Positions 14,162 to 55,352 of a DNA stretch of 64,000 nt are shown in pieces. Position 1 is the stretch's first letter; the number at the start of each line of letters is the position of its first letter. The notes under the pieces are model-generated. The model had not been told where the DNA came from, did not search any database, and worked only from the letters and a program-made list of their open reading frames with translations. A program made the translations under genes and the position numbers. Origin of the DNA: Chrysomallon squamiferum (Eukaryota > Animalia > Mollusca); contig CM022674.1 of the NCBI GenBank assembly GCA_012295275.1, forward strand, positions 11,036,001-11,100,000, read 5' to 3'.

Positions 14162-16693
14162 TAATAATAATATTACAACAATAATAATAATAATATAGAA
14201 ACACTTTAATATTTATTTTTTTGTATAAAATTTAAATTTGTCTTGTTAAATACATTTTTAATTGCATTTATTTTATTTTATATTTTTTTATGAATGTTGT
14301 TTATTTTTATTTATTTTATTTTATTTTATATTTTTTTATGTGTGTTTTTCAGACGAGTGTTCCTCCAGTGATGGCGTTCAACATGGGCTCTCTCGGGTTT
14401 CTCACTCCGTTTCAAATACAGGACTTCAAAGAAGAAATCTCCGCAGTGCTGGCAGGTAAAACAGGGCAGCTTACTCTGGGGGTGCTAGCAGGTAAAACAG
14501 GGCAGCTTACTCTGGGGGTGCTAGCAGGTAAAACAGGGCAGCTTACTCTGGGGGTGCTAGCAGGTAAAACAGAGCAGCTTACTCTGGGGGTGCTAGCAGG
14601 TAAAACAATGGCAGCTTACTCTGGGGGTGCTAGTAGGTAAAATGGCAGCTTACTCTGGGGGTGCTAGCAGGTAAAACAGAGCAGCTTACTCTGGGGGTGC
14701 TAGCAGGTAAAACAGGGCAGCTTACTCTGGGGGTGCTAGCAGGTAAAACAATGGCAGCTTACTCTGGGGGTGCTAGCAGGTAAAACAATGGCAGCTTACT
14801 CTGGGGTTGCTAAAAAACAATGGCAGCTTACTCTGGGGGTGCTAGCAGGTAAAACAATGGCAGCTTACTCTGGGGGTGCTAGCAGGTAAAACAGAGCAGC
14901 TTACTCTGGGGGTGCTAGCAGGTAAAACAATGGCAGCTTACTCTGGGGGTGCTTAACAGGTAAAAACAATGGCAGCTTACTCTGGGGGTGCTAGTAGGTA
15001 AAACGGCAGCTTACTCTGGGGGTGCTGGCAGGTAAAACAGAGCAGCTTACTCTGGGGGTGCTGGCAGGTAAAACAGGGCAGCTTACTCTGGGGTTGCTGG
15101 CAGGTAAAACAGAGCAGCTTACTCTGGGGGTGCTAGCAGGTAAAACAGGGCAGCTTACTCTGGGGGTGCTGGCAGGTAAAACAGGGCAGCTTACTCTGGG
15201 GGTGCTAGCAGGTAAAACAGGGCAGCTTACTCTGGGGGTGCCGGCAGGTAAAACAGAGCAGCTTACTCTGGGGGTGCTAGCAGGTAAAACAATGGCAGCT
15301 TACTCTGGGGGTGCTAGCAGGTAAAACAGGGCAGCTTACTCTGGGGGTGCTGGCAGGTAAAACAGGGCAGCTTACTCTGGGGGTGCTAGCAGGTAAAACA
15401 ATGGCAGCTTACTCTGGGGGTGCTAGTAGGTAAAACGGCAGCTTACTCTGGGGGTGCTGGCAGGTAAAACAGGGCAGCTTACTCTGGGGGTGCTGGCAGG
15501 TAAAAAACAGAGCAGCTTACTCTGGGGGTGCTGGCAGGTAAAACAGGGCAGCTTACTCTGGGGGTTGCTGGCAGGTAAAACAGAGCAGCTTACTCTGGGG
15601 GTGCTAGCAGGTAAAACAGAGCAGCTTACTCTGGGGGTGCTAGCAGGTAAAACAGGGCAGCTTACTCTGGGGGTGCTAGCAGGTAAAACAGGGCAGCTTA
15701 CTCTGGGGGTGCCGGCAGGTAAAACAGAGCAGCTTACTCTGGGGGTGCTAGCAGGTAAAACAGGGCAGCTTACTCTGGGGGTGCTAGCAGGTAAAACAGA
15801 GCAGCTTACTCTGGGGGGGTGCTAGCAGGTAAAACAAGGGCAGCTTACTCTGGGGGTGCTAGTAGGTAAAATGGCAGCTTACTCTGGGGGTGCTGGCAGG
15901 TAAAACAGGGCAGCTTACTCTGGGGGTGCTGGCAGGTAAAAAACAGAGCAGCTTACTCTGGGGGTGCTGGCAGGTAAAACAGGGCAGCTTACTCTGGGGT
16001 TGCTGGCAGGTAAAACAGAGCAGCTTACTCTGGGGGTGCTAGCAGGTAAAACAGAGCAGCTTACTCTGGGGGTGCTAGCAGGTAAAACAGGGCAGCTTAC
16101 TCTGGGGGTGCTAGCAGGTAAAACAGGGCAGCTTACTCTGGGGGTGCTGGCAGGTAAAACAGAGCAGCTTACTCTGGGGGTGCTAGCAGGTAAAACAATG
16201 GCAGCTTACTCTGGGGGTGCTAGCAGGTAAAACGGCAGCTTACTCTGGGGGTGCTAGCAGGTAAAACGGCAGCTTACTCTGGGGGTGCTAGCAGGTAAAA
16301 CGGCAGCTTACTCTGGGGGTGCTAGCAGGTAAAACAGGGCAGCTTACTCTGGGGGTGCTAGCAGGTAAAATGGCAGCTTACTCTGGGGGTTCTAGCAGGT
16401 AAAACGGCAGCTTACTCTGGGGGTGCTAGCAGGTAAAACGGCAGCTTACTCTGGGGGTTCTGGTAGGTGACAATAAATCAGGCTGAAATGAGGACAGAAT
16501 TTAGCATTTCACATACAAAGAGAAAATATCTAGAGTTTTAGAAGATATATATGCATATATAATGATGACCATTAGCAGCTTAAACATCATAATCATTGCT
16601 GTTTAACTGCTGCTTATTATTATTATTAGTGTTTATATATACATACATATATTATACTTATATACACACACTGTTGTTTGTTTACTTGTTGTT

Positions 16694-16724
<31 letters not shown>

Positions 16725-16822
16725 TGATTCTTATTCCTGTTGTTGCTCTCCTTCTTATTCTTCCTAATTAGTATTATTATTATCATTACCACAACCACTA
16801 CCATTGTTACTATTACTATTAC

Positions 16823-16869
<47 letters not shown>

Positions 16870-17944
16870 GTGACCACTATCACCATCATCATCATCATTA
16901 TTATATTTTTTTTTATTTATGTTTCTTTCAGGCAATGCCAGTCTGATTCTGCGGAATCGGTTGAAGTGTGTGGTGTGTAAGTGTAAACATGGCTCCTGCA
17001 ATGACATGCCACATGTCAAATTCATTGACACCATTCAGACCAACAGACATTTTCTTGAATGTGTTACGGTATGTACTGTCTTGTCATTTCAGCTTGTGTA
17101 TGTACAAGTTATCTAAATATATGTTTGTGTACTTTCATATTATTTGTTTTATTTCTTAAAATTGAAGATAAAATAATAAATTACTGCGGCATTTTCTGTG
17201 TTGGTAAATAAATGTTATAGAAAAATATTCTTTATTAATAATAAAGTATGGCAATAAAATAGCAACATCATTCACATTTTCTGTTATCTCTGTTATAGAT
17301 AACTATTCTTTTTCAATAATAAATATACAACAGTGAAGTAATGAAATCTAGACATGTTCTGTTTTATAATAACTTTTATAATCATTCTTTGTTAATAATT
17401 AACAGTATGGCATGTGATGCTGATCATTTGTTTAATAATTACTGTTACAGATAACAGTTCTTTGTTAATAATAAAGTAAAATAACTCATTAAATACAAAC
17501 ATTTTCTATTTTATCATAATTCTTACAGATGACTATAATTATAATAATATAAAATTGTTGTTGCCAGGTTCTGTGTGTTTTTATTCAATTATCATTTATT
17601 TTTAGCAAAGGTTTTTTGAAATATATATAAGTAAAATAACATGATATAAGTAGCATTGTTTATTTTATTTAAAGACAAAACATAAATTTCATAAGTTTTA
17701 CAAAGATACATTTTTTTAGAAACTCTTTTGTATGTACTGTCCTGTCATTTTTATTATTTTAATTGTTTCAGGTGTTAAATGAAGTTGTAGTTGACCGAGG
17801 TCCATCTCCATACCTGTCCAACATTGACCTTTATATTGATGGTCATATGGTCACTTCAGTTCAAGGAGATGGTAAATATAGACAGTATAAATACATGGAC
17901 ACATGCACACACACGCACACACATACATGCACACACACGCACAT

Positions 17945-18025
<81 letters not shown>

Positions 18026-20126
18026 AATTATGAAATACCACACCAAAATAATTAAATGTGAAAATCAATTCAAATATTCTCATGTTTCAGGAAATCCTGG
18101 ATATTTATTTATTTATTTATTTATTTGTTCATTTTACATTTTTATTCCTTTATTTTGTTTATTAATTATTTATTTATTTGATTTTTTGTTTATTTATTTA
18201 TATGTTTATATATATAATTTTTATGATTTTATATATTTGTTTGTGTGTTAACTGTATTTATTTATGTTATTTATTCATTTCTTTAATTTATTATTTATTT
18301 ATTCATCATTACCAATTATTTCATGTGGTTTTTTTTAAATTTATTTATTTATTTTTTAATTTTATTTTCAGGTTTGATAATTTCGACCCCCACGGGGAGT
18401 ACAGCGTATGCAGTGAGTGCAGGGGCATCCATGGTGCACCCCTGTGTCCCCTGCATCCTAATCACACCCATCTGTCCCCACTCCCTCTCCTTCAGACCTG
18501 TCATAGTACCTGCTGGTGTCGAGATCAAGGTAATCTGTTATAACAGTAGTAGTGGTAGTTGTAGAAGTAGATGTAGTAGTTGTCATAGTAGTTGTAGCAG
18601 TGGTAGTAATAGTAGCAGAAGCAGGAGTAATAGCAGTAGTAGCAATAGTAGCAGATGTATTGTAGTAGGAGTAGTAGTGGTAGTAATAGTAGTCATAATA
18701 TACTATTAATATTATTATTATTATTATCATCATTATTGTTATAATATTAGTATGATTGTAACAGTAGTAGAAGTAATTTTATTAGTAGATGTAACAGTAA
18801 TAGTAGTATAGCAGTAGTCATATTTGTAGCAGCATTTGTCTTAGTTATAGTATATGTACACTATTGTCCAAATTATTCTAATTGTGTCTGTTTGTATGTG
18901 AATGTATGTGTGGTTATATGTACATATGTGTCTGTGTGTGTGTGTATTAATGTTTATGTTAGTGTTTGTGTGTGTGCATATGTGTTTGTGTGGATGTATA
19001 TGTATGTGTGTGTATTTAATGTTTGTGTTAGTGTGTGTGTATGTGTGTGTGTCTGGTTAAATTTCTGTCTGTATATATGTATGTATACAGGTAGGCAGAC
19101 TAAGGTGGGTTTGTGAAATGATTTTGCCAGCCAACCTAAAGAGATCAATGTTAGTTATTTTTTTTCAAAACACTGTTGTTTGCATTATTCTCCTGTTTCT
19201 TCTTATTATTGTTATTGTTATTATTACTCTATGTTGTTGTTGTTGTTGTTATTGTTATTATTACTCTATGTTGTTGTTGTTGTTGTTATTGCCACAGATA
19301 ATGGTGTCACCAGACGCTCGACATAATGCCTGGGTTTCATTTGATGGGAGAAACAGACACGAAATTAAACAAGGAGACAGGTAAACAGTTATTTCTTAAT
19401 TACAGGTAACACACAGTCAGTTCATTAATTCAGGTGTGCTGTTTGTATTTTTCAGTGTTCACAAAACCCACTCCTAAGTACCCACATTTTTCTCATTTCA
19501 ATATTATGTTATCAGTTGTAATGTTTTTCAGTGTTATATATCCTGTTTTATGTACACACTTTTAAACATCTTCCAGTACCTACTTTTTTCTTTTTTTCAA
19601 ATAATGTACCCACTTTGTTTTTTGTACTATGTACCTACATCTGTGTTTTTTATAATCCACTTTGTTGTGTGTTTCAGTGTTTGAATAATGACTGCTGTTT
19701 ACCCACTTTGTTGTGTGTTTCAGTGTTTGAATAATGACTGCTGTTTACCCACTTTGTTGTGTGTTTCAGTGTTTGAATAACGACTGCTGTTTACCCACTT
19801 TGTTGTGTGTTTCAGTGTTTGAATAACGACTGCTGTTTACCCACTTTGTTGTGTGTTTGAATAATGACTTCTGTTTACCCACTTTGTTGTGTGTTTCAGT
19901 GTTTGAATAAAGACTGCTGTTTACCCACTTTGTTGTGTGTTTCAGTGTTCGAATAACGACTGCTGTTTACCCACTTCCCTCTATATGTGCGAAGGACCAG
20001 GTAGAGGACTGGTTTGCAGGACTGGCTGACTGTCTACACTGGAACATCCGCAGACCTCAGAAGAGTCTTTCGTCAGGACAGAGTGCTGCCAGCCTAGAGC
20101 TGTTTGACACCGAGTTCCTCAATTAA
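11782..20126 (+). CDS. NADK: Cytosolic NAD+ kinase, 9 coding exons (5' end upstream or alternative)
   Basis: Exons 11782-11911, 13364-13469, 13584-13669, 14353-14455, 16932-17068, 17772-17871, 18372-18529, 19298-19380, 19946-20126. All introns are GT-AG and phases add up. Spliced product has the NADK motifs [75 protein letters not shown] and [11 protein letters not shown]. Confidence 0.97.
14446..16468 (+). repeat. 36-bp minisatellite (about 56 copies) spanning the NADK exon/intron donor
   Basis: Unit gtgctagcag|gtaaaacagggcagcttactctgggg is the last 10 exon nt plus the first 26 intron nt. Confidence 0.97.
17900..18023. repeat. (CA)n microsatellite
   Basis: Direct inspection. One of many CA, TAA, CT and TTTA tracts in the window. 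Confidence 0.95.
19657..19976 (+). repeat. 46-bp tandem repeat (7 units) spanning the NADK last-exon acceptor
   Basis: Unit ccactttgttgtgtgtttcag|tgtttgaataa(t/c)gactgctgtttac. The last unit is the true exon start. Confidence 0.96.
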
Positions 20127-20984
20127 CCTTCACTTTGCCTTTAGTGAACAAAACTACTTCAATAGCTTTTAAATTTTAAATTTAAAATCTCTTTCAGTTG
20201 AATACATTTCTTTCAAATTTCTGAAAATAATTTAAAAAGATTTTTAATAGTCGTGTAATAAAAATGTTTCTCAAAGTTAATGAAAAATGTATTTCAGTTT
20301 TTGTGAAATGAATATAGATATAATTTACAAATTTCTCAAAATTATTGAAAACATTTTAGTTTGTTCATAGATTATTGTGTCTTTCAACTTGACGTAGTTA
20401 ATTAATATATCTTTCAGCTTTCACATAATTAATGAAAATATATTTTAATATTGTCACAATATGAACACGTTATTTTACTCTCACAGTTACAGAAATCATT
20501 TTAAACTTTCACATAGCAAAAACTTTCAGCTCTGTCACATTTCATAATTAATCAAAATATATTTCACACAGTTTTTGAAAACTTCTTTAAAACTTAGACA
20601 TAATTAATGAAATGATTCAGTTTTCTGAATACTGGCTTAATTTAAAAAAAAACAAAAACAGAAATAATATACATTGTAATTGTTAGTTTTATAATTGTAT
20701 TGATTATTCTAAATTGTCCAAAAGTGTTTATGATAAAATAAAAACATATATATTTTTATCTCTTTCCTCCTTCACTGGACAAATTACTTCAGGGTGTATA
20801 AATATCTTGCTAAATATTTTACTGTTTTAACTGTTGTTGATTTTTGAAGTTGTTTTAATGTATGTTTTTTTCATCAGAAGAGTTTTTTAATATTTATGAA
20901 TAATAATAGTCATGTGTTACAGGGTCACTTCTAAGTAATGGAAAGTGTATGACTGCAAAATATATATATATATATACATATATA

Positions 20985-24603: not shown

Positions 24604-27600
24604 TTAATCCTCAAAGTACAGATCTTCCCTGTAGCACCCAATACAACCTTTACAGTGAGGTTTCTTTTCATACAGATAGAAACTGTCAGGTAGCAAAAAC
24701 TTCCTTGCTTTTTCCACTTGTTCTCTGGTGGCTTTTTCTTCATACAGGAATTCAACTTCTGTCTCAAACTCTTCTACACTATCAAAACTTTTAGCGTTTT
24801 CACTTATTGCATCATGTGTCCCAGTATTTTTACTTGTGTCATCATGTTCTCCAGTATTTTCCTCATCATATTCTCTGGTATTTTTACTGGTGTCATCATA
24901 TTCTCTGGTATTTTGACTGGTGTCATCGTATTCTCTGGTATTTTGACTTGTGTCATCACATTCTCTGGTATTTTGACTTATGTCATCATGTTCTCCTGTA
25001 TTTTTACTTGTGTCATCATGTTCTCTGGTATTTTTACTTGTGTCATCATGTTCTGTATTTTTGCTTATGTCATCATGTTCTCCTGTATTTTTACTTATGT
25101 CATCATGTTCTCCTGAATTTTTACTTGTGTCATCATGTTCTCCTGTATTTTTACTTATGTCATCATGGCCTCTGGTACTTTCACCATTCAGCATTTTTGA
25201 GAACTTCTTTCTGCATTTACTGAAATGTTTATTTGAGGCACCTGCACCTGTGAACACAAACACTGCAATTGGAGACTTTAACTCTCCAGTATTTTCACTT
25301 GAACCATCAAACTTAAATCCTCCAGTATTTTTACTTAAATAATCAAATTTCCACCCTCCAGTATTTTCACTTGGACCGTGTAACTTAAATCCTCCAGTAT
25401 TTTTACTTAAATAATCAAATTTCCACCCTCCAGTATTTTCACTTGGACCGTGTAACTTAAATCCTCCAGTATTTTTACTTAAATAATCAAATTTCCACCT
25501 CCAGTATTTTCACTTGGACCGTGTAACTTAAATCCTCCAGTATTTTTACTTAAATAATCAAATTTCCACCCTCCAGTATTTTCACTTGGACCGTGTAACT
25601 TAAATCCTCCAGTATTTTCACTTGGACCGTGTAGCTTAAATCCTCCAGTATTTTCACTTGGACCGTGTAGCTTAAATCCTCCAGTATTTTCACTTGGACC
25701 GTGTAGCTTAAATCCTCCAGTATTTTCACTTGGACCGTGTAGCTTAAATCCTCCAGTATTTTCACTTGGACCGTGTAGCTTAAATCCTCCAGTATTTTCA
25801 CTTGGACCGTGTAGCTTAAATCCTCCAGTATTTTCACTTGGACCGTGTAACTTAAATCCTCCAGTATTTTCACTTGGACCGTGTAGCTTAAATCCTCCAG
25901 TATTTTCACTTGGATCATTAAACTTCAACTTTCCAGTATTTTTACTTGTATCATGTAACTTCAATCCTGTGGTGTTTTTACTTGGATCATCAAACTTCAG
26001 CTCTCCAGCATTTTCACTTGAACCATGTAACTTCAACCCTCCAGTATTTTTACTTGAATCATGTAACTTTAATCCTGCACTATTTTTACTTGAATCATCA
26101 AACTTCAACTCTCCACTGTTATTACCTGGAACATGTAACTTCAATCCTCCAGTATTTTTACTTGAATCATCAAACTTCAACTCTCCAGTATTTTTATTTG
26201 AATCATCAAACTTCAACTCTCCAGTATTTTTACTTGAATCATCAAACTTCAACTCTCCAGTATTTTTACTTGAATCATCAAACTTCAACTCTCCAGTATT
26301 TTTACTTGAATCATCAAACTTCAACTCTCCAGTATTTTTACTTGGATCATCAAACTTCAATCCTCCAGTATTTTTACTTGAATCATCAAACTTCAACCCT
26401 CCAGTATTTTTACTTGAATCATCAAACTTCAATCCTCCAGTATTTTTACTTCGATCATCAAACTTCAACCCTCCAGTATTTTCACTTGGATCATCAAACT
26501 TCAACTCTCCAGTATTTTCTTTTGAATCATGTAACTTAAGTCTTCCAGCATTTTTACTTAAATCATCAAACTTCAACCCTCCAGCATTTTCACTTGAATC
26601 ACGTAACTTCAATCCTGCAGTAGTTTCACTTGAACCATGTAACTTCAACCCTCCAGCATTTTTACTTAAATAATCAAACTTCAACCATCCAGTGTTTTCA
26701 CTTGATCCATGTAACTTAAATCGTCCGGAATTTTTACTTAAATCATCAAATTTCAACTCTCCACTATTTTTACTTGAATCATGTAACTTAAATCCTGCAG
26801 TGTTTTTACTAGGATCATCAAACTTCAACCCTCCAGTAGTTTCACTTGACTCATCAAACTTCAATCCAGCAGTATTTTCTCTTGAATCTTGTAACTTAAA
26901 TCCTCCAGTATTTTTACTTGGTTCAAACTTCAACCCTCCAGTAGTTTCACTTGACTCATCAAACTTCAATCCAGCAGTATTTTCTCTTGAATCTTGTAAC
27001 TTAAATCCTGCAGTATTTTTGCTTGGCTCAAACTTCAACCCTCCAGTAGTTTCACTTGACTCATCAAACTTCAATCCAGCAGTATTTTCTCTTGAACCAT
27101 GTAACTTAAATCCTGCAGTATTTTTGCTTGGTTCAAACTTCAACCCTCCAGTAGTTTCACTTGACTCATCAAACTTCAATCCAGCAGTATTTTCTCTTGA
27201 ACCATGTAACTTAAATCCTGCAGTATTTTTGCTTGGTTCAAACTTCAACCCTCCAGTAGTTTCACTTGACTCATCAAACTTCAATCCAGCAGTATTTTCT
27301 CTTGAACCTTGTAACTTAAATCCTGCAGTATTTTTACTTGGTTTAAACTTCAACCCTCCAGTAGTTTCACTTGACTCATCAAACTTCAATCCACCAGTAT
27401 TTTCACTTGAACCATGTAACTTAAATCCTCCAGTATTTTTACTTGGTTCAAACGTCAACCCTCCAGTATTTTCACTGTGCTCTGCTAACTTCAAAATTCC
27501 AGTATTTTTATTTGCTCCTCCAGTTTTACTGCTTACTGCATCAACATCTTTTCTGCTGTAGATGAAGCTGCTGCTGCTGCTATATCTGTTTGTGTGTCCT

Positions 27601-30204: not shown

Positions 30205-30729
30205 TTTGAAACACTATTATACAACCAGTCACATGCAATTCATCTAAAATAATAATAATAATAATAATAATAAAAACAAACAAAAAAGCCATATATATAT
30301 ATATATATATATACATATATAGATACAACAACAAAAAGATAATAAATAACGATAATAATAAATAATAATAATAATAATAATATCACAAATACTATAAAAA
30401 ATACAATTTCCATATTTATTCCTTGAATTTCTGACCTATCAGTGAATTGTAAAATGAATTTTTCAGTATACTTGAATACTTGCACTTTTTCAATAATTAT
30501 TTGTATTAGTATCAACAGATAAAGTGGAATAATAATTCTAATTCTAATAAAGAATCATTGATTTTAATACCAAAATACCTATCACTTTTATCAAATAAAT
30601 TTACTACTTTCACTATCTTTCTGTTTCCAACTAAAAGTTTGCCGTCTGATAACGTGAAATATCGACAATCATTCATCCGTTCGTTTTCTCACATAATTAT
30701 AGACTTTGTTAGTGTATTTACAGATACAA

Positions 30730-31400
30730 ATACTTACGTTATGATGGAATAGAACTGCAAAAGTTACCAAGGAAGTCATCCCGTTTTTCACAGATTTGTT
30801 TCTAGTTTCGATTTAGCTTGTTCTGTCTAGACTGATACTCTTCTGTATTAGAAAAGCGTAATAACTAAGAGCAACGACCGAGTAGGCTGCACGGGTTTCG
30901 TACCCAACATGCTGGCGCACAAAAGATACAAAAGTATCAAAAACTAGTTCGTTCCCAAAATCTTTTGAAATATAGGACGGAAAAAAAAAAAATTTTTCCT
31001 TAAATATTTAAAATTTTTACAATTATTACAGTGGAGAAGTTTAGTATAAACGTGACTTTGATGTACGTAACCCGTATCGTGTTTTCTCGTCCGATTTCCT
31101 CGATACGGAAGAAGCCGAATACGTTCGTTTTAACGTATAGCGAAGCACTTGTACGTGCGCGTTTTCGTATCGTTATAGCAATTGTTTTTTAAACCTTATA
31201 AACAGTGAGAGAGATGTTTTGGGGATTTTCTTTAATAACCTTTGCACAGATTAGTGTTGCTTAAGTTGCATTTTCGTGCATGGTTTTCACAAAATGATCG
31301 CCAAAGAAAGACCCCCTTCTCTCAAAAACAACAAGAAAACAACGTGGTTATACTTACCGTTGTACGCTGATTGACCGAAATCACGATGTCGGGTGCTAAA
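30730..31400 (-). promoter_or_regulatory. CpG-enriched probable promoter and non-coding first exon(s) of the RanBP2-like gene
   Basis: Local CpG excess against a CpG-poor background. Minus-strand gtaagt donors at about 30737 and 31357, and an acceptor at 30244 upstream of the ATG. Confidence 0.45.
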
Positions 31401-33703: not shown

Positions 33704-34134
33704 TTATGCACGTGGTTTGGATGTTGGTGTCACTGTTTTAGATCGGAAAAAACGTCGCATCACGTAGACCTGAGCACACGATGAAATGATGATGATGATG
33801 CACTGAATGACTGAGTAGTAGCCGACGTAGCGGTTGTTGCCTTTGACCAAGTACCAGTCACGTAAGATGTTGGCGCCAGATCGTGACTGATGTTTTCTCA
33901 TTTCCATCACCGACTCTTCAACATGCGTCAACGACGACTGGGCGAGTGAGAGAAGGTTAAAAAAAAAACAGAAAGAAAAAATTAAACAAAGACAGAGGAA
34001 AAGATTACGAGAGAAAGAAAAGCAAAACGAAAAAAAATTGAAGGGATGAAGATTGAAAAGAAGGAAACAGATATAACTGATGAAAAAGGGATGAGAGAAA
34101 GATAGAAATTGTTAGAATAAAAGAATGAAAGAAA

Positions 34135-34194
<60 letters not shown>

Positions 34195-34555
34195 TAGAAA
34201 GTTAACCATAAACACAAATTTTAAAAATATGAAAAGGGTGATCACGTTTACATACATAATTAAACTTTTGAATAGCAAAACCCCATCTTGGTAGCTTTGT
34301 GTTTAAAACATAAAACACTTCAAAACTGACGGAATTTACAAATTTTGAAACTGTTTTAACTACAGACATTTTCCACGTCAGCTTCCCTTTAAATTTGACT
34401 GAGCATAGTTTATGACACTTCCAAACAAAATTTCAGACTCTCTGCCAGATTTAATAACTTTTTCAACCATTCATCTAAACATTAAAAAAAAATTAATGTA
34501 ATAACTTGAGTCAGAATTTTATCGGTCTACATCCAGTCTGTAAGTACTGTAATAC

Positions 34556-35584: not shown

Positions 35585-35628
<44 letters not shown>

Positions 35629-36987
35629 CAACAACAATAATAATAGTAATAACTGCAACAACAATAATAAAACAACAACAACAACAACAATAATAATAAC
35701 AATAAAATAATAAATAATAATAAAGAAAAACTATAAAGAAAAAATAATAATTATATTAAAGAAATAATGCCTTGATTGTTGCTCTTTAATCAATATTTAC
35801 TTCAGTTTCAGTTACTTTACCTTGTTCCATGTAATATTCCGTACACTTGACTGGGTGAAACCGTGATTTTAATTAGTTCTCAGTATAACAAATACTGTGA
35901 AGCACCAGTCTAACATCCAGGTTTGTATTTAGCTCTCAGTATAATACATACTGTGAAGCACCAGTCTAACATCCAGGTTTGTATTTAGCTCTCAGTATAA
36001 TACATACTGTGAAGCACCAGTCTAACATCCAGGTTTGTATTTAGCTCTCAGTATAATACATACTGAGCAGCACCAGTGTAAAATCCCAAAGTATGAACGA
36101 ATACGCTACCTTCAGTTTCAATTTCTTTCTTCATCGCGCCATCACTCTTATAATAAAGTGTTTCTATTATTTGATTATTTGGATCCTTTACTATCATATC
36201 AATCTTCCGATCATCACCACGAAGTACCTGTAGAGTAAGTAAGTAAATAAATAATCGTAACATTTTTAACACACGTGACACGAAAGGACAGGATTTAGAT
36301 TTAAAATAAGGCGATTAGTATCAAATAAATAAATAAATATTTATAACGGCAATGACCTCAATAGAAAAAAAAAATTAAAAAATTAAAAAAAAGAAAGAAA
36401 TAATATTCAATTCAATGCAATGCAATACAATACAATACAATATAACATAATAATAAATAAATAAATAATAAAAATTAAAATAATAATTAAAATATACAAT
36501 AAAAATAAAATGAACATTTTGTAATATTAGAAATTTTTAGAATAATTTCTAGCATTGATAATCGCGTTATTTAGCTAATGTGATTCTACATGCATGTGTT
36601 TATTTATGCACGCCATGAATGTGTGTGTGTGTGTGTGTGTGTTAATCTCAGTATGTAGGTTAATAAATAACCAGAACTCACTCACGCAATGCATTATTTT
36701 AGATACAATCTGTTATTAATGTTATATTTATTCTGTACTGTAAGAGAAACACGTGTTACCTCAAACGAAAAATAAAAATTTGCTCCTTTCGAAATATGTT
36801 GGAAAAAACAGTCTTCCCGTAGAGCTCCGATTTCTACGGTCAGTTCATGATACGTCCCGAATAAATAATTATTCAGGAAGAAATCAGGGTCTGGTGTTTC
36901 ATCATTTTCTTCTGTCTGAGCCAGCAACGTCGACAAAGAGTTCAGAAAAAACACGACTGCAAAAACTAGTGAGTATTTCCAGAACAT
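33704..36987 (-). CDS. p24/emp24/TMED family cargo receptor (GOLD domain, probably gamma subfamily), 241 aa
   Basis: Exons 36987-36760, 36227-36110, 34848-34703, 33937-33704 with consistent phases. Signal peptide, GOLD motifs (ELTVEIGALREDCFFQ, FEVLRG, GIYTVCLDNTFSRFSSKRV), coiled coil, NNRYV followed by a TM helix, tail QVYVMRRFF...PTSKPRA. Confidence 0.93.
35870..36085. repeat. 56-bp tandem repeat (about 3.7 copies) near the 5' end of TMED intron 2
   Basis: tactgtgaagcaccagtctaacatccaggtttgtatttagctctcagtataataca at 35893, 35949, 36005, partial at 36061. Confidence 0.92.
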
Positions 36988-37274
36988 ACTGCAACTAGCG
37001 TGTTAGTGTTTAGATTTACAACACGTGTGAGGGGCATAATCGATCTCAGTGTGATATCCCGGCATGCCTGTCACGTATCCATAGTTACCATTTGAATTAG
37101 CAAAATGACTGTGTTATCTGTTTTTATCAAGTGCGGTTTTAGAGAAAGGCATGTCGCAATATGAAAATTATTATCTACTTCTGTTTTTTGTTCCCACGGT
37201 CAAAGTAGTCCGTCTGAAGCCAGACCACAGTTTATGAAGACTAGGCACGCATGTGCGGCGACCTCTGTCATCTG

Positions 37275-43811: not shown

Positions 43812-45558
43812 CTAGACCTCTCTGAAATAAAAACACATTTTTTATTTTGTATTTGCTTATTAATAAATAATTTCCTATTTAAAAGAAATAAAAATAATAA
43901 ATATTGTAAAATAAAAATACCATAAAAAAAAAAATACACCATATAACTATAACCATATACAGTCACACACAAACACTCACACACAAACATATGAACATAC
44001 ACAAGCCATTATTATTCTTGAACATTTAGTATTCACACCAGACTATTTATTTTGTAACATTAGAATTATATGTAATCTGAAGTTTTTATTATCTGCAACA
44101 AGATTTAATAGATTAAGCCAGTTTTTAGGTTTCCAAGAAGAAAGATAAATAATCTGGTAAATGTATAATAATAATAATAATTGTATTGTAACAACAACAA
44201 CAATAATAAAAATAACATTAGCAATGGCCACAGTAATAAGATTAACCAAAACTGTAAATACTTACGAAGCCTCCACATTAGAATTGAGTAGTAGTTGTTT
44301 TTTCATTTTAAGAATCTGAGCATGGGAGAGTTTAATCTTATCTGCCTGAACTGAGGGTAAATCTACAGATGATATTCCTTCTTCCAGATCACTCGTTTTC
44401 AACTCCTGCAACAACGTTGCAATGTCTGACGTTGACTTACAGTTGCGTTTTGACTCTACTGTCAATTGTGTTGATGATGGTGAAGATGTCCTCTCTGTTT
44501 CTAAAGAATATGACGACAAATCGTGAATGTCTTGATTTGTCACTGATTCCATCTCCTCACAGATTTCTGACTCGGGATTCTGGAGTGATCCCGAGGAACT
44601 GAAACCACTGGAACTTGGAATACTTCGAATCGAGTCACAACTTTTTGTTTTGTCTTTGAGTCGCTGTTCTTCGAGTTTCGTTCCAAGATTCCACGAGAGT
44701 CGTTTGTGAATGCTGTTGTCCTTGTCGCGGTTTTTGTGCAGCTCCTGCACTGAATCGACGGTGAAGTACCTCTTTTCTGTCCTAGACGAGCGACGCTGGT
44801 TCAGCTTCTGTTTGGTGTCATCATCTACGAGATCTTCGCTTGAACCAGAATGCGTCTGCACGTCTGTTATCACGTCTGAACACACAGTTGTGGGGTTTGG
44901 TGTCGACAAGCAAACTGTGATTGTCTGATTCTTTTTCCTCGGCTGTGGTGAATTTTCAGGTGATGATGATGTAAACAATGTTGTACGCTCACTCTGTGAA
45001 AGATGATGCTGCCGCGGTTGTTGCATAGCTGGGTGTCCTTCAATGTTGCTGAGTGACCCAGATCGGACGATGTCCTGCGGCTGAGAAGAGCAGTGACCGT
45101 TCTGACTGGACACTGAGATGCTGTGAGAAATGTTTGGAATGAACTTGTCCTCGGTTGTGTCTGCACTCTCCGTCCTGGCAAACATCTGCATGAAGGAAGG
45201 TGATGCGCTGTCATGGAGAGCAGGCAGAGTTATCTCCTCCTGCAGATACGTAGACGTCTGCATCAGGCGTTTGGACCTTTCCTTCTCATCTGTGAACTTG
45301 GCGTCCTGGTATGCCTCCTGCAGTTAAACAAAACATGTAAACAAAGCAGTAAACAAAACATGTAAACAAAGCAGTAAACAAAAAAACCCTCAATAAAACC
45401 AGTAAATTAAAAACATCCAAAAATGAATAACAAAGTAGGAGGACTGAATAACAATGGAATAGCTAGTTGATAATTATTATTATTATTAATTAATTAATTA
45501 TTATTTTTATTTTTATTGTTCTTGTTATTAATTACATATTTGCTGATATGATTGTATG

Positions 45559-45632
<74 letters not shown>

Positions 45633-48600
45633 GAATAATTTTTATCATTTTAATGATTATAAAATGTAACAGGTACTTGTCAAAGGGTTCAAATAAGTTA
45701 TTAGAACAAAACAAAATCTTCAAGGAGATTTATCTGCTAAACAGTTAAAATTAAAATGTTTGTAAAGGATTGATTTTGTAAGATATATAAATTGGCAGTT
45801 AATAAAAAAAGTAATGTGTAGAATGATATGTTAAAGTGCTGAAGCTCACAAACCTGAGCATTTTTCAGCTGTTCAAGCCACATTCGTACTGCCATGGGGT
45901 CACCATGAAACGTGAAAGTGGCAGTTGGAACGTCATATTCATTGAGATATATCAACAGAAAACTTCCTGTAAAAAATAAACAAATATGATGATATTAATA
46001 CTTCTAATAATTAAAATAAACAGACGAAAGTTTGATTAAACAGAAATAGAGTAACCGAAAGAACATTTAATTTTTTATCATATTAATTACCATATCACAC
46101 ATGCTAGCATAATGATAAAACAAAAAGGAAATTTCCTGCACATATTCTACAGCAAACTCATTTAGATTAGCAGCAAGAATTCTGTTATATGTTCCTACCC
46201 ATAGTCAGCATAACAACAAGATTAAATTTCAGTGTTTTGATACCTTTATCTTTGAGTTCATGTATGATGATTCTGTCGAGTCGCATTGGAGGTTTTGTGA
46301 TTTTGTATTTGTCCATTCGCTTGTTAGACTTGCATAGCAGCAGCAGGTCTGTGAACAGGAAGCAGTCGACGTCCATCTTGAAAACACAGAAATAAATATT
46401 ATAGAGTTAGGTGCATGAGAATGTGGGTGAAAATATGAAAAGGTGAAAAAGATGCTGAAGAAAAGAAAGAAGAAGAAGAAGAAGAAGAAAAAGCAACCTA
46501 ATGAGATACAGAGATAAAGAGTGAGTTACAGAAGAAAAGAGAAAGAAAGATGAGATAAACTCAATTACTTATGAATCAGACTGTGTACAAAGGCATTTCT
46601 AAAAAGCAAGAAATAATAATCTACCTAAAAAAATAAATAATATAGCAATCAAAATCAGAAGTCCAAGAATCTGAAAACAGTGAATAAAGTAAAATATGAA
46701 ATTGCTCTGAGACATAGAACGTATTTCCTCACCCTGCTGGCTTGCGACTCTTTCATGCGCAGTGCTGAGTGGTAGAGAAGAGCTCGATTCTTATCGTAGC
46801 CAAATCCTGGCATGGGAGACAGCAGATTGAAATTCTGATTATAGTTACCAATAATCTGAAAAACAAAATTACAATATAATACACTGAAAAACAAAATTAC
46901 AATATAATACACTGAAAAACAAAATTACATTGAATATAATGATGTTCCTGTTAGCAGTAATTGATCTTTCATATAAACCTTCCCACAAACAGTACAGTAC
47001 ATAGTGTATTGTTTGTTAAATCAGTTAAAATTTAAAACATGGAGAATATGAATGAATGCAACATCACTGAGGTCATATTTTTAACAACATTTTGTAAATT
47101 TATTTAACATCTGGACATTAATAACCATACATTTTAACCTTTGACCTTTTTAATTCTGTGGACATTTTTACTGTTAAATGATCTAATTTATTGATGAGTT
47201 CTTACTTTTGAACACTCTTCACTGGGTGGTTCGACAGCATCGTACGGTTCAATCTTACCAACCACAGCAACCAGTCTCTCCTGGTTCAGCTTGTCGTTCA
47301 TTTTGTTGTTGATCGACATCACAAACTTGTCAACACTCGCAATCTGGAACAAACAAACATTCGTTATGTCAATATCCCTTTATTTTAATAGTTGTAAATT
47401 TAATAAAAATCCTTTATTTTAATCTCTTGACATTTAACAACATTATATTTTTATTTTTTGATATTAATAATCCTTCATTTTATTCTCTGGATATTAGAAT
47501 CCTAAAGTGTTTTTTTTTATGACTGAAATTGATATAATTCTATGTTTGATCTATAATTTACTTATCATTCATATCAAAATTTTATCTGAAGAATTTGTTA
47601 ATGAAAGTGTGACAAGTAAACTCATTAATTTATCAAGGGAGATGACCTACCATTTCGAGGAGATCTTTTCGATGTCTCTCATCCTCAGTTTTGCGGAGAA
47701 TGGCTTGGATGAGAAGTGAGTATTTGGTGAGACGCTGCATGGGCTGTACTAAAAGTGCAGTCAGACTGAGTCGATTGCACTGTTTCTGTGTTTCGGCCCA
47801 CTACAGTTGTAAAATAAAGATTAAATTAATGGAATAATATAGCCATTAAATATAATGAAAAACAGAAAATAATAGAAATAAATAAACATTAAAAAAATAA
47901 TGAAATAAATATGCACTCAGCTCTAAGTTATCACACTGTTTTGTTTTCTGTTCACAATGAAAAACAGAAAAAAATTGAATCAAATGTTAAAACAGTAATG
48001 AAATAAAATGAAAAAAAATAAAAAATAAAAAATTGATGAATTGGCAGTGAATAAAGAATAACAAATGAATTATTTAAATCAGAAAAATATTTCACTCTAC
48101 AGTAACTGATTTTAAGTATTTGAATGAAAACTTTCTTAAATATAAATGAATGTAAATCCAAAGGTGTTACTTAGAATGCAGATCAACAGTAACACATGTC
48201 CTGTGAGTAAATGTGATAATTCAGGTAATATATACAATGTCTGTGTGTGTCTGTTGATATTATGGCAGAGAGAGGTCTGTAAGTGACAACTGAAGTCTAA
48301 AATATGTTTTGTGTTTGTATAGTTACCATGACGAAAGTCTTGAAGAGGTCGTTTTCGTTGTAGCGAGATTTCATGTAATCAACACATGCTCGCTGCTCCA
48401 TGCAGTACTTCAAATAGGGTCCAAACAGCGTACTGAACTGTAAACAAACAAACAAATAAACAAATAAACAAACAGTAAACAAACAGCATACTGAACTGTA
48501 AACAAACGAAAACAAACAAACAAAAACAAAAACTGAACTGTAAAACACAAACAAAAAAAACAAACAGCATACTGAACTGTAAACAAACAAACAAACAAAA

Positions 48601-49420
48601 ACACACAAAATAAACAAACAAACACAAACAGAGTACTGAACTGTAAACAAACAAACAAACAAACAAACACACGGTTCAAATAAACAAACAACTGAACTAA
48701 ACAAACAAACAAACAAACAAACACACGGTTCAAAAACAAAGAGTACTGAACTGTAAACAAACAAACAACCAAACAAATAAACAAACAAACAAACAAACAA
48801 ACAAACAAACAAACAAACACACGGTTCAAACAGAGTACTGAACTGTAAACAAACAAACAAACAAAGAAACAAACACACAAATAAACAAACAAACAAACAA
48901 ATAAAAACAAATAAACAAACAAAAACAAATAAACAAAAACAAAGCATACTGAACTGTAAAAAACAAACAAACAAACAAACAAACAAAAATGGTTAAACAA
49001 ACAAACAAACAAACAAACAAACAAACAAACAAACAAACAAACACACGGTTCAAACAGCATACTGAGCTGTAAACAAACAAACAACCAAACAAATAAACAA
49101 ACAAATAAATAAATGACTGATTATACATTTAAAAATAAAAAATATTATTACAGAAAGATAATAAGGAAAAATAAATAAATCAGTCAATTCAAATATTCAG
49201 ATAACCATTCTTTTTTATGCTTATCAATAATATTATTATACATGTATAAAAGATATAGAAAATATAATAAATAAATATAGAATTTATTAGTATTAGTAAT
49301 ATTAACAAAAAATAATCATTCAGTTAATCAACAACAAAAAACTAATAATACAATAAAAAAAAAAAAAAAAAACATAGACATAAAAATAAAAATAAACAAA
49401 TAAACATACAAATAAACATA

Positions 49421-49459
<39 letters not shown>

Positions 49460-52428
49460 AGGATATATAAAATGTCTTTGTACAAAATAAAAACAGCCAA
49501 ACAGATGTATCTAGATACACAAGTCAGTTGGTGACAGAGAAGAGAGAGAGAGAAATAGATAAATGATTTACAGATATTTAAGCAGACAGGGAGAAGAACA
49601 GATATATAGACTCAGGTGAAATGTTTAGATGTGGCTTGTTGAGACTGTTGCTGAGGTTTTACCTCCTTTGTGAAGCCAGCTTTCAGCAGCGATGGGTTCA
49701 GTGGTTTTCTTGTCTCTCTCGCCTCGTTCAGCACTTTGAGCAGATGGTCTTCCCAGAATTGTCGATTTACATCACATATAGCATCAATATTACAAAACAA
49801 CTTCTCAGTTTCAATCTGAAACAGATAGTTTCATTCATTACAGTTTAAATTCTTTTTGTCTTTGTACTGGCAATTAATGTAGGTAAAAAAATAAAATAAA
49901 CAACAAAAACAATAAGATGCTATATTGTTACTATGTCAACATGTCACAAATACGACATCATCACATTATGTAACATTTTCACAAAAAAATATTTCTATTT
50001 TTGCTAATATGTTCTCATCTCACAAATATCAGTATTTCATGAATACATTACTATTTTACAAATATGTCATCACAACATTATGTCACAATATCACAAATAT
50101 ATTACTATTTTACTAATATTTTACTGGAGTTCAGCTAAGACACACAGAAATACATACATATCTTAGCCCACTGACAACACACCTGCATTTTTACTTACTT
50201 CATTTAACAACTGTGCTTCTTGTAAATTTAAAAGACTAACTTGGAAGACCTGAAAAATAGTATTATTAAAATATATATTAAGAGTAATAACACAATATAA
50301 TCTTTTGTAATTTATTTAAGTAAAGATATTTCTTATTAATTAATTTTTTCATTTGAATGTGTCAAAACAGAGAACAGGTAAAGTGTACCATTGGTAATAT
50401 AAAGAAACAGTCTAAATATATTTCTCCAGAATATTATTTTTATTTGTTTCTTGTGAAGTATCTAATACATTGTAACAGTGAAGTTTCTAATACCAACAAT
50501 ATAACAGTGAAGTGTTTAATACAAGAGTGAAGTATTTAATACAAGTGAAGTGTTTAATACAGAAGTGAAGTGTTTAATACAAGAGTGAAGTATTTAATAC
50601 AAGTGAAGTGTTTAATACAGAAGTGAAGTGTTTAATACAGAAGTGAAGTGTTTAATACAGAAGTGAAGTGTTTAATACAGAAGTGAAGTATTTAATACAA
50701 GTGAAGTGTTTAATACAGAAGTGAAGTGTTTAATACAGGAGTGAAGTGTTTAATACAGGAGTGAAGTGTTTAATACAGAAGTGAAGTGTTTAATACAGGA
50801 GTGAAGTGTTTAATACAGGAGTGAAGTGTTTAATACAGGAGTGAAGTGTTTAATACAGGAGTGAACTGTTTAATACAGGAGTGAAGTGTTTAATACAAGC
50901 AGTATCTTACATCTGTTATGACCCTGAGCTGACTGATGTAGGAAACTTCTGTGTGCAGCAGTTCCCAGATTGCTTCCTGCTGATCATGTTGTCTCTTAGT
51001 GAGTGCCTGGAACAAACAAACTCACAGATGTACAGATGTACAGATGGACAGACAGACAGGTAAATAAACAAACAAACAAACAAATATACAGATGTATAGA
51101 GAGACAGACAGACAGGCAAATAAACAAACAAACAAATAAATAAACAAATAAACAAATAAACAAACAAATAAATAAACAAATAAACAAATAAACAAACAAA
51201 TAAGTAAATAAGTAAATAAAAAATTAGAAAAGTAATTTAATATAAAAATAAGCAATGAAATTACTTTAATAAAATAGCATTCAGAAACATATCAGGAAAA
51301 GAAACTACCTAACTATAAGTTCATTATCACTAAAAAGTAATATATAAAATTTATCTGTGAATCTATCTATCTTTCTGTATTTTATGGCTTGTTCTTGATT
51401 CAAATTAGGAATTATCATATAAAACTAATATATTTCAATCTAGCCCCTGGACCATGAGACTGTATCCTGTAAGTCTAGAACAACTTAATGTTAGGCAGAA
51501 GTCAAGATTTTGGTGAGGCCTTCAAAAATGTATGAAAATTATAAAGATGCACGCATGCACACACACACGCACACACTATTTTCTTGTAATCAGTGCATAT
51601 GAACTGTTCAGATGTTTTTTGTTTACATGTCTGTCCTTTTTTTTATATTTATATTTTAAAATATTTTCATTATCAGAAAATACAAAACTTTGTTATTTAT
51701 TATCTTTTTTTCCACACATGCACATATATACATTTATACTTTATTCAATAATAAAAATTTACAATCTAATATTAAATTACAATGTTATCAATAATATACC
51801 AATTGTTAATTAATTTATAAAAAAAAAAAAAATAAAAACGTTCAACTGATGTATAACTGATATATTTTATTTAAAATTAGATTACCATGTTTAAAACATA
51901 CTCACTTTATATTTAGATAGATTAAATAAAATATATCATTAATCTCTGTTTCATACAGAACATATGGGTTATCATAATTAAACAGCCATATGCTGCATGC
52001 AATAAAAATACGTATCTGTTTTCACGTATGAAACAGTTTTAATTCTTTGCACCTCATGTTCTGATGTTTTATACCCAACTAAATTTAGCCATATTCACAC
52101 CAATCCTAGAAACTGATATTAACTGGCTGTTTGTGGACATTAGACCACATATACCATCATGATAAAGACCTGACTTCCTGCATTTTTATTTAATTTGAAA
52201 ATGGCTGCATTGCAAAGGATTAATGGTAATATATGAAACAAAATCAATAGGATGATATTAAAATGTTTAAATTATTATTTATTTTTTTTTTTTTTTTTTT
52301 TTAAATTTATGTTGTACTTGTGTAGTCAGATCTATGTTACAATTAAATTATATAAATATCTGAATATAAATGATTACATAAAGGAATATTAACTAAAAAA
52401 ATACTAATTTAATAAAAATAAACATTAG

Positions 52429-52459
<31 letters not shown>

Positions 52460-52483
52460 AATAAATACTACTACTACTACTAC

Positions 52484-52518
<35 letters not shown>

Positions 52519-52597
52519 TTAATACTACTACTACTACTAATACTAATACAAATACAAATACAAATACAAATACTACTACTACTACTACTACTACAAA

Positions 52598-52629
<32 letters not shown>

Positions 52630-52736
52630 ATACAAATACTACTACTACTACTAATACAAATACTACTATACTACTACTACTACTACTAATACAAATACTA
52701 CTACTACTACTACTACTACTAATACAAATACTACTA

Positions 52737-52786
<50 letters not shown>

Positions 52787-52995
52787 ATACTACTACTATT
52801 ACTAATACTACTATTACTAATACTACTAATACTAACAGAAGCGTTGTCAACGATACAGCTCCAGTGAGGTTCTAGCTGAAAGACTTTCTCATCGAAGGGG
52901 ACGCGATCCAGGGCCAGCAATGGCGGCCAGCCTGGTAAACCATCAGTGCTGTAACTACTGAGTATCTCATTTAGCTGTTCTGTCTTCTCCCGGTC
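43812..52995 (-). CDS. PLEKHG5: DH-PH RhoGEF, PLEKHG5/Syx-like, 12 core coding exons
   Basis: Exons 52995-52837, 51006-50911, 50249-50199, 49815-49663, 48437-48327, 47800-47651, 47343-47206, 46855-46733, 46376-46244, 45966-45854, 45317-44266, 43821-43812. DH motifs [47 protein letters not shown] motifs [27 protein letters not shown]. Spliced C-terminus [12 protein letters not shown] is the PDZ-ligand tail typical of PLEKHG5. Confidence 0.93.
46856..46929 (-). repeat. 28-bp triplication of a RhoGEF 3' splice site
   Basis: Minus-strand tgtaattttgtttttcag three times at 28-nt spacing. The last copy precedes exon 46855. Confidence 0.92.
48420..49090 (-). repeat. Compound repeat: RhoGEF acceptor copied about 10 times within (TTTG)n
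   Basis: Minus-strand tttacag|ttcagta.. at plus positions about 48432 (real), 48490, 48532, 48571, 48635, 48691, 48745, 48837, 48948, 49061. Confidence 0.9.
50452..50898. repeat. 20-bp minisatellite (about 20 copies) starting about 12 nt inside a RhoGEF intron
   Basis: gtgaagtgtttaatacag(g/a)a. Confidence 0.93.
52465..52835. repeat. (TAC)n/(TAATAC)n compound microsatellite abutting the RhoGEF donor at 52836
   Basis: Direct inspection. Confidence 0.9.
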
Positions 52996-53137
52996 CTACA
53001 CAAACAAACAAACAAACAAGTAAATAAACAAATAAAAAACATCAGTGCTGTAACTACTGAGTATCTCATTTAGCTGTTCTGTCTTCTCCCGGTCCTTACA
53101 CAAACAAACAAACAAACAAGTAAATAAACAAATAAAC
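52939..53137 (-). repeat. 99/100-bp tandem duplication of a RhoGEF acceptor plus the first 55 exon nt
   Basis: catcagtgctgtaactac...cggtcc(t)tacacaaac... at 52941 and 53040. Confidence 0.95.
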
Positions 53138-54384
53138 AAACAAGTAAATATGTGTGCGTGTGTTGTATGTATAATTATAAATGAATATATGAATAATATA
53201 TAAGTACATGTATAGCCAATATTAATATTAGTCATTTAATATTTTAACTTATTAATATTGTAATTATTACATTAGAGATAACAATAACATTACAGTAACA
53301 GGAGTCATAATCAAACACACACACACAAAAAGACACATACAAACATACACAGATCACACATGCAGTACTGGTTGGAATGGGAATTTGTTTACAGGACATC
53401 AAGAAGAGTTAATCTTGTGAGTCATCACTCATTTCACAAACTTTAACACAGCTGTATTCATAAACACACAGATTAATCATATATATATATATTCAGCAGT
53501 CTACATATATCATAGAAATAATAATAATAAAAAATATATTTATAGAAAGAAACAATAAAAAACAAAAACACCAAACAAGTAATGACCAAAACATTGAAAA
53601 TTATCCAAGTGATAAAACAAGCAAGCAGAAACATAAATCAGTTTCCATGGCAACAACAAAAATAATCTAATTACATAATATTTTCTTCAGTGTTATTTTT
53701 TTCTGTTTTTTTTTCTTCTGGGACAGATAAGAATTGAAGCATATCTAATATATTCTCCAAATTTATCACATTGTTCCCAATATATTCACAGATGTACATG
53801 TTTGTTCATACCTGTTCATTATATGTGCTCTGTATATACCAAGTACAGGGGTACCTAAAAACACTGTATATACATGTGTGTGTGTGTGTGTGTGTGAGTG
53901 AAATAATTATAAAATGATTTAGTTATATCTTGCAAACCAGTCTGTACTGATAAACCGACATCTGGCATGTACAAATTGTAATGTACACGTGAGTTTAATA
54001 TGTTTTTAATGTTAGATGATTACTGTTAAAGATAAAACAAGGCTTGTGTTAAGTAAATAAGTAATTATACATGCTGCAGTATTAGATAACACAAATGAGA
54101 AAAGCAAAAGGAAGAAAGAATGAAATAAAAAGGAAAGGACTCAAAAAAAGAAATAACACATTTAAAAACTAGAGAAAATGAAAACAGAAAAAAAAGAGAA
54201 AATGAGTTGTAACACAACACATAACTTAATGTGTTGTATAAACACAAAATATTAATGTAACACATTGTTTACATACTCACTCACAGTCAATACATTATTT
54301 ATGTACTCACACCAGTCAACATAATTTACATAGTCAACACTGTTTACAAATCAGCATCAGTTTATAAATTCATACTTGTCAACA

Positions 54385-55352
54385 TAGTTTACATACTCAC
54401 ACCAGTCAACTCTGTTTACATACTCACACCAGTCAACTCTGTTTACATACTCACACCAGTCAACACACTGTTTAAATACTCACACCAGTCAACACACTGT
54501 TTAAATACTCACACCAGTCAACTCAGTTTACATACTCACACCAGTCAACTCACTGTGTTTACATACTCACACCAGTCAACTCAGTTTACATACTCACACC
54601 AGTCAACTCACTGTGTTTACATACTCACACCAGTCAACTCACTGTTTACGTACTCACACCAGTCAACTCACTGAGTTTACATACTCACACCAGTCATCTC
54701 ACTGTGTTTACATACTCACACCAGTCAACTCACTGTGTTTACATACTCACACCAGTCAACTCACTGTGTTTACATACTCACACCAGTCAACTCACTGTGT
54801 TTACATACTCACACCAGTCAACTCACTGTGTTTACATACTCACACCAGTCAACACACTGTTTGTATGCCATGCCAGTCTACACACTGTGTTTACATACTC
54901 ACACCAGTCAACACACTGTTTGTATGCCATGCCAGTCTACTCACTGTGTTTACATACTCACACCAGTCAACTCACTGTGTTTACATACTCACACCAGTCA
55001 ACTCACTGAGTTTACATACACCAGTCAACTCACTGAGTTTACATACTCACACCAGTCAACACACTGTGTTTACATACTCACACCAGTCAACACACTGTGT
55101 TTGTACGCCATGCCAGTCTACTCACTGTGTTTTCATACTCACACCAGTCTACTCACTGTGTTTACATACTCACACCAGTCAACTCACTGTGTTTACATAC
55201 TCACACCAGTCAACTCACTGAGTTTACATACTCACACCAGTCAACACACTGTGTTTACATACTCACACCAGTCAACACACTGTGTTTACATACTCACACC
55301 AGTCTACTCACTGTGTTTACATACTCACACCAGTCAACACACTGTGTTTGTA
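54385..55352 (-). repeat. 31-bp minisatellite (about 30 copies) spanning the RhoGEF alternative-exon donor
   Basis: Minus-strand unit cacagtg(a/t)gttgactggt|gtgagtatgtaaa. It decays toward about 54260. Confidence 0.93.

Follow-up and report, generated by a model that had tools for sequence, protein, structure and literature searches.

Splice-junction arrays in two neighbouring genes

We analysed a 64,000-nt stretch of the genome of the gastropod Chrysomallon squamiferum (assembly GCA_012295275.1, contig CM022674.1, positions 11,036,001 to 11,100,000 of the forward strand), referred to at its full length as the window, in which splice junctions of two neighbouring genes, encoding an NAD kinase (NADK) and a PLEKHG5-like RhoGEF, are overlapped by tandem repeat arrays. 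Four of these arrays, at donor 14456 and at acceptors 19945, 48438 and 52996, are mirage minisatellites, in which the repeat unit spans the real exon-intron boundary; each additional copy of the splice site is called a decoy here. The window is AT-rich and repeat-rich, giving 189 rows in Tandem Repeats Finder (TRF), with microsatellites occupying ~17% of its length and complex non-coding arrays 9,223 bp (14%). Exon models were made by hand, and clean spliced open reading frames (ORFs) were obtained for NADK, the RhoGEF and a TMED/p24 gene; a fourth gene lacks a complete model. The junction set consisted of 52 junctions from these four modelled genes, to which a 53rd (63553) was added. The two main genes and the arrays that overlap their junctions are as follows, in window coordinates, with the caret marking the splice position.

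9990..20128, plus strand: NADK gene, 10 modelled exons (5' exons incomplete), open 384-aa spliced ORF
43812..52995, minus strand: PLEKHG5-like RhoGEF gene, 12 homology-supported exons (full model 55517-43812, 13 exons), based on spliced ORF and homology
14446..16458, plus strand: mirage array at NADK donor 14456, 36-bp unit (10 nt of exon and 26 nt of intron), 56.1 copies by TRF
19657..19976, plus strand: mirage array at NADK acceptor 19945, 46-bp unit (15 nt of intron and 31 nt of exon), ~7 copies, 6 AGs
48425..49078, minus strand: mirage array at RhoGEF acceptor 48438, irregular units of (GTTT)n, AG and exon start, 10 AGs including the real one
52937..53142, minus strand: duplication across RhoGEF acceptor 52996, 99 bp x2, decoy at 53095
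54266..55361, minus strand: array at putative RhoGEF donor 55328, 31-bp unit, about 32-35 copies, 29 GGT^GTGAGT sites with the putative donor counted

Human NADK chains in the PDB are matched by three NADK exons; exon 16934-17068 has no match there, and one short NADK exon used as a protein query, in a weak search with 1 candidate, returned nothing. The RhoGEF model aligns with protein P0001 of Gigantopelta aegis, the nearest relative, at 78.2% over 789 columns, with the long exon at 64%.

The initial annotation proposed that at least 8 of about 52 splice sites had been copied into the neighbouring intron. Four tandem arrays lying across homology-supported junctions stand, with the copy numbers originally put forward (about 56 at donor 14456, six AGs at acceptor 19945, about 10 sites at acceptor 48438 and two at acceptor 52996); a fifth, at 55328, is conditional, and 46856, 17069 and 19381 were over-called. 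Both boundary types are hit, with one supported donor and three acceptors, and the periods are 36 bp, 46 bp, irregular and 99 bp. The unit consensuses differ between loci, as judged by inspection rather than by a formal all-against-all comparison, and exon edges in the window carry more arrays than expected; both support the earlier view of a recurring, locus-independent process acting on unrelated units.

The array at donor 14456 is the largest of the four. It holds 56 AG^GT(A/G)A sites, counting the real donor and one degenerate terminal site, and 51 of them have the same sequence as the real donor from -3 to +6. Its 55 units fall into 17 types, of which a few recur; one unit lacks the donor, and copies share changes relative to the exon, a pattern read directly from the units and not from a tree. 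The array terminates in a degenerate copy of its own exonic start.

For donor 55328, the 31-bp array itself, for which about 30 copies had been claimed, is real, but the exon that it would adjoin has neither homologue nor RNA support. The putative exon upstream of the donor (55329 to about 55500) is without a match in 18 homologues, and 55329-55496 has no Pfam family and 0 hits among 1.84 billion representatives. Contigs from X8, X9 and X6, three of the four runs compared at this place, do not cover 55354-55563, although absence from contigs is no proof, and two 61-nt contigs of X8 that lie on the repeat unit could be pre-mRNA or DNA. The homologues join several different upstream exons at the position of 52995, and 55329 to about 55500 may therefore be an alternative first exon, predicted from sequence, on which the status of the 55328 array as a mirage depends. 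The same putative exon contains a 39-bp in-frame duplication (55407-55484, minus strand).

Short-read contigs break inside the arrays. One explanation considered is that the arrays are assembly or polishing artefacts at exon ends. The array at 55328 is the sole one compared with DNA contigs, which leaves this explanation some room. For that array, DNA run X1 yielded five short contigs on the repeat unit at depths of 133-575, against 64.9 in the unique flank and with a variant letter; contig depth is not copy number, but since it exceeds that of the flank the unit is multi-copy in the read data. In addition, the patterned variation among units (17 types in 55 units at 14456, and the decay of copied CpGs described below) is unlike assembler output. 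We consider an artefactual origin scarcely credible.

Three further sites had been counted as copied junctions.

46856..46929, minus strand: intronic array at RhoGEF acceptor 46856, 28-bp unit x2.6, 3 AGs, ending exactly at the AG
17730..17750, plus strand: single non-tandem copy of the intron start at NADK donor 17069, 21 nt, 1 mismatch, 661 bp away
19377..19435, plus strand: degenerate 25-bp echo of NADK donor 19381, empirical p=0.106 against 1500 intronic controls

The three AGs at acceptor 46856 are present, but the unit is purely intronic, so that the junction is not straddled. Donor 17069, described as a tandem ladder of two copies, has one distant copy that is not in tandem. These two sites fall outside the mirage class. 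The degenerate triplication suggested for donor 19381 is marginal and, by the p value given above, within chance, and this site is not counted among the mirages either.

Splice-site use and the coding state of the decoys

Splicing was followed in transcript contigs from four runs, two recorded as RNA and two spliced like RNA, that represent 3 samples from 2 studies; such contigs drop minor forms. In all four, an RNA joint connects 17068 to 17772 and continues into exon 18372. This canonical joint is the sole one in the contigs for the 17068-17772 intron, with no decoy joint and the 17730 copy unused. Contigs are also unbroken across the 16932 junction in 4/4 runs. In the X9 contig, the 425 nt upstream of 16932 correspond exactly to four modelled exons added together without any repeat unit, and differ from the 427 nt that a merge of spliced and unspliced forms would give. 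The last exon contributes only 27 nt to the same contig, the length expected from a break in a 31-mer graph when splicing proceeds from donor 19381 (a word size of 31 being assumed); this 3' break cannot separate the real acceptor 19945 from a decoy. The arithmetic of the X9 contig suggests that the proximal donor 14456 and donor 19381 are the ones used.

Protein homology points in the same direction. Residues 302-328 of the human chain 3pfn, followed by 331, run collinearly across 19381/19945, VIEG-NAA aligns with VLAG-NAS across 14456 without interruption, and the Gigantopelta residues are contiguous across 52996, 48438 and 46856. The claim that the exon-proximal copy is always the functional one thus fits the homology and the limited RNA contigs, but it is directly shown only for 17069.

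We assessed 100 decoys for their effect on the reading frame: 55 at 14456, 5 at 19945, 9 at 48438, 1 at 52996, 28 at 55328 and 2 at 46856. Six of them, four at 14456 and two at 48438, would remain in frame without a stop, and the other 94 are broken or stopped; on this count the decoys look unselected. The open decoys at 14456 are confined to 14492, 14528, 14564 and 14600, adding 12 to 48 aa. At 19945, all five decoy AGs reach TGA at the second codon, because the first CpG of the exon is TG in 6/6 copies. At 48438, the exon CpG is lost in all eight copies listed, and the decoy 53095 at 52996 is in frame with a stop at the real AG. Methylated CpG decays to TG over time. The CpG changes in the copies therefore give the direction of copying, from exon to intron. 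Loss of CpG in the copies fits neutral decay, and changes shared between copies may be single events that were spread by homogenisation.

These data bear on the proposal that copy number tunes productive versus unproductive splicing through decoys, for which NADK donor 14456 is the best candidate. Its 36-bp unit is divisible by three, decoys 14492-14600 are open, and 51/56 of its sites equal the real donor. Tandem repeats are also reported to influence splicing at many human loci (PMC10078293), and pseudo-sites are described as used in the human genes 6-16 and CBS (PMC1557585). Set against this are the 94 of 100 decoys that are out of frame or stopped, the unit that has lost its donor, the decayed CpGs, and a repeat peptide without a counterpart in human NADK. 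Moreover, the contigs are unbroken across 16932 in every run, and the one intron covered by RNA contigs has no decoy joint. A copy-number-tunable switch, as the initial annotation envisaged, is thus very improbable.

Exon-edge enrichment and the origin of the arrays

To compare the placement of arrays with chance, two array lists were built without reference to the junctions, each array was reduced to one unit, and random positions for the units were drawn from all sequence other than the wholly exonic. The first list, from shared 14-mers, comprised 25 clusters, or 23 non-coding arrays after removal of two coding arrays. The second contained 30 TRF arrays with a period of at least 15, at most half microsatellite and less than 60% exonic, a filter that drops the array at 48438. 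In the 14-mer list, 5/23 arrays span a junction against 1.18-1.53 expected (P=0.005-0.014), 4/23 without 55328 (P=0.026-0.06) and 4/16 within genes only (P=0.028-0.073), and 18/23 do not span a junction. In the TRF list, 5/30 touch a junction against 1.16 expected (P=0.005), or 4/30 without 55328 (P=0.025). Roughly a third of arrays had been estimated to straddle junctions; the share is about one fifth (5/23 strict straddlers, 5/30 TRF arrays).

Proximity to exon edges is a stronger signal than junction spanning. Within 25 bp of an exon edge lie 9/30 arrays of the TRF list, against 1.95 expected (P=7.6e-5), and 10/23 of the 14-mer list, against 2.0 expected (P=8e-6), and both lists show the excess at each of nine cut-offs between 0 and 200 bp. 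Five arrays come within 2-25 bp of a junction without copying it: one at 33960 and the following four.

50506..50897, minus strand: intronic 20-bp x20 array that starts 13 bp after RhoGEF donor 50910, unit without a splice site
45320..45383, minus strand: intronic 25-bp x2.6 duplication that ends 2 bp before RhoGEF acceptor 45318, without AG
35873..36086, minus strand: intronic 56-bp x3.8 array that starts 23 bp after TMED donor 36109
19209..19291, plus strand: low-complexity 37-bp x2.2 duplication that ends 6 bp before NADK acceptor 19297

The P values are optimistic: the exons were modelled by hand, the window was picked as unusual, and the distances had been seen before 25 bp was set as the cut-off. 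A position-level test was weaker, giving 4/53 junctions against 66/1500 controls at score 30 (P=0.21), with P=0.04 at score 36 and P=0.02 at score 44; it undercounts, in that masking hid the (GTTT)n parts of 48438 and 52996, two true cases, and the 17730 copy. At the other 46 junctions, remnants of exon ends were not in excess (Wilcoxon P=0.14, with the two junctions of a 114-bp intron left out). An excess of arrays over random positions holds within the window, but it is modest.

Such arrays are not new. The initial annotation knew only isolated junction-spanning variable number of tandem repeats (VNTR) loci, but the class has been named 'mirages' in amphioxus (PMC3087553), and PMC1557585, a paper on human F7, names four other human genes. 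As described in the available text of PMC3087553 and PMC3902484, amphioxus mirages are tandem repeats across exon-intron boundaries, on both sides, found in Adh3, the globins BflGb6 and BflGb9, troponin C and PGBD5; splicing is undisturbed, length is unstable, and the phenomenon is proposed as possibly general in cephalochordates, with an origin called unclear. The arrays reported here are like them in involving both donors and acceptors, in carrying GT or AG, in occurring at several loci per genome and in varied unit length (31-99 bp, against 10-160 bp in amphioxus), and splicing may be normal here too. Judged against the same descriptions, they differ in occurring in a gastropod, in reaching 56 copies, in the grouping of four to five cases in two neighbouring genes with a window-level estimate of enrichment, and in the presence of further arrays that abut junctions without copying them.

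Human junction-spanning VNTRs include F7 IVS7 (37 bp), CBS IVS13, 6-16, lamin B2 and PDGF (PMC1557585). According to that source, the most upstream of the identical donors is used in F7, which is explained by oriented scanning, and splicing also takes place at the first two pseudo-sites of 6-16 and CBS. The array at 14456 closely resembles that of F7, its first unit spanning the donor and identical pseudo-donors following. The human examples, as presented there, are on the donor side and in scattered genes, whereas here acceptors are copied as well and the cases are clustered. Repeat-driven intron changes in duplicated human genes have also been catalogued (PMC2812944). The arrays thus belong to an already described repeat class, and single cases matter little.

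In our favoured reading, to which we give a probability of roughly 0.6, the arrays are neutral mirage minisatellites and their local excess comes from survivorship together with the choice of window. An array would be born by ordinary short-homology (microhomology-mediated) tandem duplication in a repeat-prone region, and would later gain units through unequal exchange or slippage. Where the duplicated stretch crosses a junction, an intact copy would remain next to the exon, and the exon-proximal site would be chosen, as in human F7, through scanning or exon definition. That choice would remove most of the cost, and arrays would be free to grow into the intron as neutral clutter. The excess at edges would arise because exonic duplications are purged, the edge copy is held fixed and deletions near the exon are constrained, with an extreme window added. 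Duplication is frequent everywhere in the window, given the 14% of complex arrays, the ~17% of microsatellites and a coding array where one is tolerated. Microhomology-mediated tandem duplications are described as mostly neutral and depleted from coding sequence (PMC13167724, PMC3389668); in these accounts, as here, the units are tens of bases long with terminal redundancy, and the terminal redundancy of the 14456 array is what short-repeat birth models lead one to expect.

Several points weigh against this explanation. The excess at edges is ~4-fold (5/30 against 1.16; 9/30 against 1.95), and by our own reasoning survivorship alone would give ~2-fold, so that window selection must supply the remainder. 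Microhomology pairs of 6-mers number 0.78 across junctions (n=37) against 2.04 deep in introns (n=1977), a supply from which simple slippage would not single out junctions. By analogy with human 6-16 and CBS, where two pseudo-sites are used, the in-frame 14456 decoys may be used at a low level.

The main competitor retains neutral mirages and adds that exon edges in this lineage truly give rise to tandem duplications at a higher rate. The cause would then likely be exon architecture (nucleosomes on GC-richer exons set among AT-rich introns, lagging-strand flap errors, or co-transcriptional pausing where exons end) and not GT/AG. As general background, nucleosomes sit over exons. The edge excess at every cut-off from 0 to 200 bp in both lists (P from 0.005 to 8e-5 with 55328 and from 0.025 to 4e-4 without it) speaks for such a bias, as do the five arrays placed 2-25 bp from junctions that they leave uncopied and the one that ends exactly at an AG. 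The supply of microhomology does not account for the excess, and loss of flap endonuclease is reported to increase such duplications in yeast (PMC13167724), a paper that contains neither 'intron' nor 'splice' and leaves exon edges unaddressed. Against it stand a single window picked as striking, the hand-made exon set and post hoc cut-off, the modest P=0.026-0.06 for strict straddlers without 55328, the P=0.14 for remnants at the other junctions and the P=0.21 of the position-level test at score 30. We regard a true edge bias as tentative, and rather less likely than neutral mirages with survivorship and window choice.

Two more specific mechanisms had been suggested. A seed specific to the splice site fares poorly with five arrays next to junctions that they do not copy, and microhomology at the junction as that seed is not supported, since such pairs are rarer there than deep in introns. 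Transcription-coupled R-loops leave no common signature, the sense-strand GC skew of the arrays ranging from +0.51 to -0.86; the two signs also tell against an R-loop contribution to an edge bias.

It is doubtful, though worth stating, that exon edges are a genome-wide duplication hot zone in this gastropod lineage, several-fold above intron interiors and independent of GT/AG. If so, mirages would be what is seen of a mutational bias, coupled to chromatin or to splicing, that steadily produces cryptic splice sites and precursors of new introns, and in such a genome the choice among identical splice sites could be studied in thousands of natural experiments. In the literature searched, which left most subscription papers outside, we found no genome-wide test of tandem-repeat enrichment at exon edges, and a search on gastropod repeats had no match. 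Whether exon edges are duplication hot zones is a testable question and the lasting value of these observations; a genome that is compact and prone to repeats, and in which one window shows a ~4-fold excess, is well suited to telling mutation bias apart from survivorship. In a mollusc, 5' splice-site scanning could likewise be tested on the NADK array at 14456, which has four identical in-frame donors.

Neighbouring genes and minor features

Two further genes were modelled between NADK and the RhoGEF.

33704-36990, minus strand: TMED/p24 gene, four modelled exons, Pfam EMP24 (EMP24_GP25L)
24604-30779, minus strand: fourth, repeat-rich gene, whose coding sequence includes a long minisatellite (36 bp x61, 30 bp x13)

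Besides the 56-bp array after donor 36109, the TMED gene has a 55-bp x15 array ~500 bp upstream of its first donor. The fourth gene contains ORFs of 787 and 301 aa that overlap near 25500, which suggests a 1-bp frame break in one unit; its splice model stays outside the long frame, and its small upstream exon has no Pfam family. Upstream of the RhoGEF, exon 63554-63661 (minus strand), with a strong donor at 63553, matches the N-terminus of protein P0004 (E=0.002), and in P0004 this N-terminus runs directly into the 52995 exon of the RhoGEF. By sequence, the exon is predicted to be the conserved short-isoform first exon of the PLEKHG5-like gene.

In the introns of these genes CpG is sparser than in exons, with 24 per kb in exons against ~10 per kb over the first 25 intronic bases and 3 per kb at 200-500 bp, on small counts and with an uneven trend. 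Within NADK, a 33-bp intronic stretch (17229-17261, plus strand) has matches within a number of transcript contigs, unrelated to one another, from each of the four runs and is probably a short dispersed repeat. Contigs of the NADK exons differ from the assembly by T>C at 17014 in X9 and at 17026 in X6, X7 and X8, probably as alleles. NADK exon 13584-13669 is flanked by an 18-bp direct repeat (16/18; 13563-13580 and 13679-13696, plus strand), such that the end of the upstream intron recurs directly behind the donor of this exon (p=0.08 in comparison with controls).

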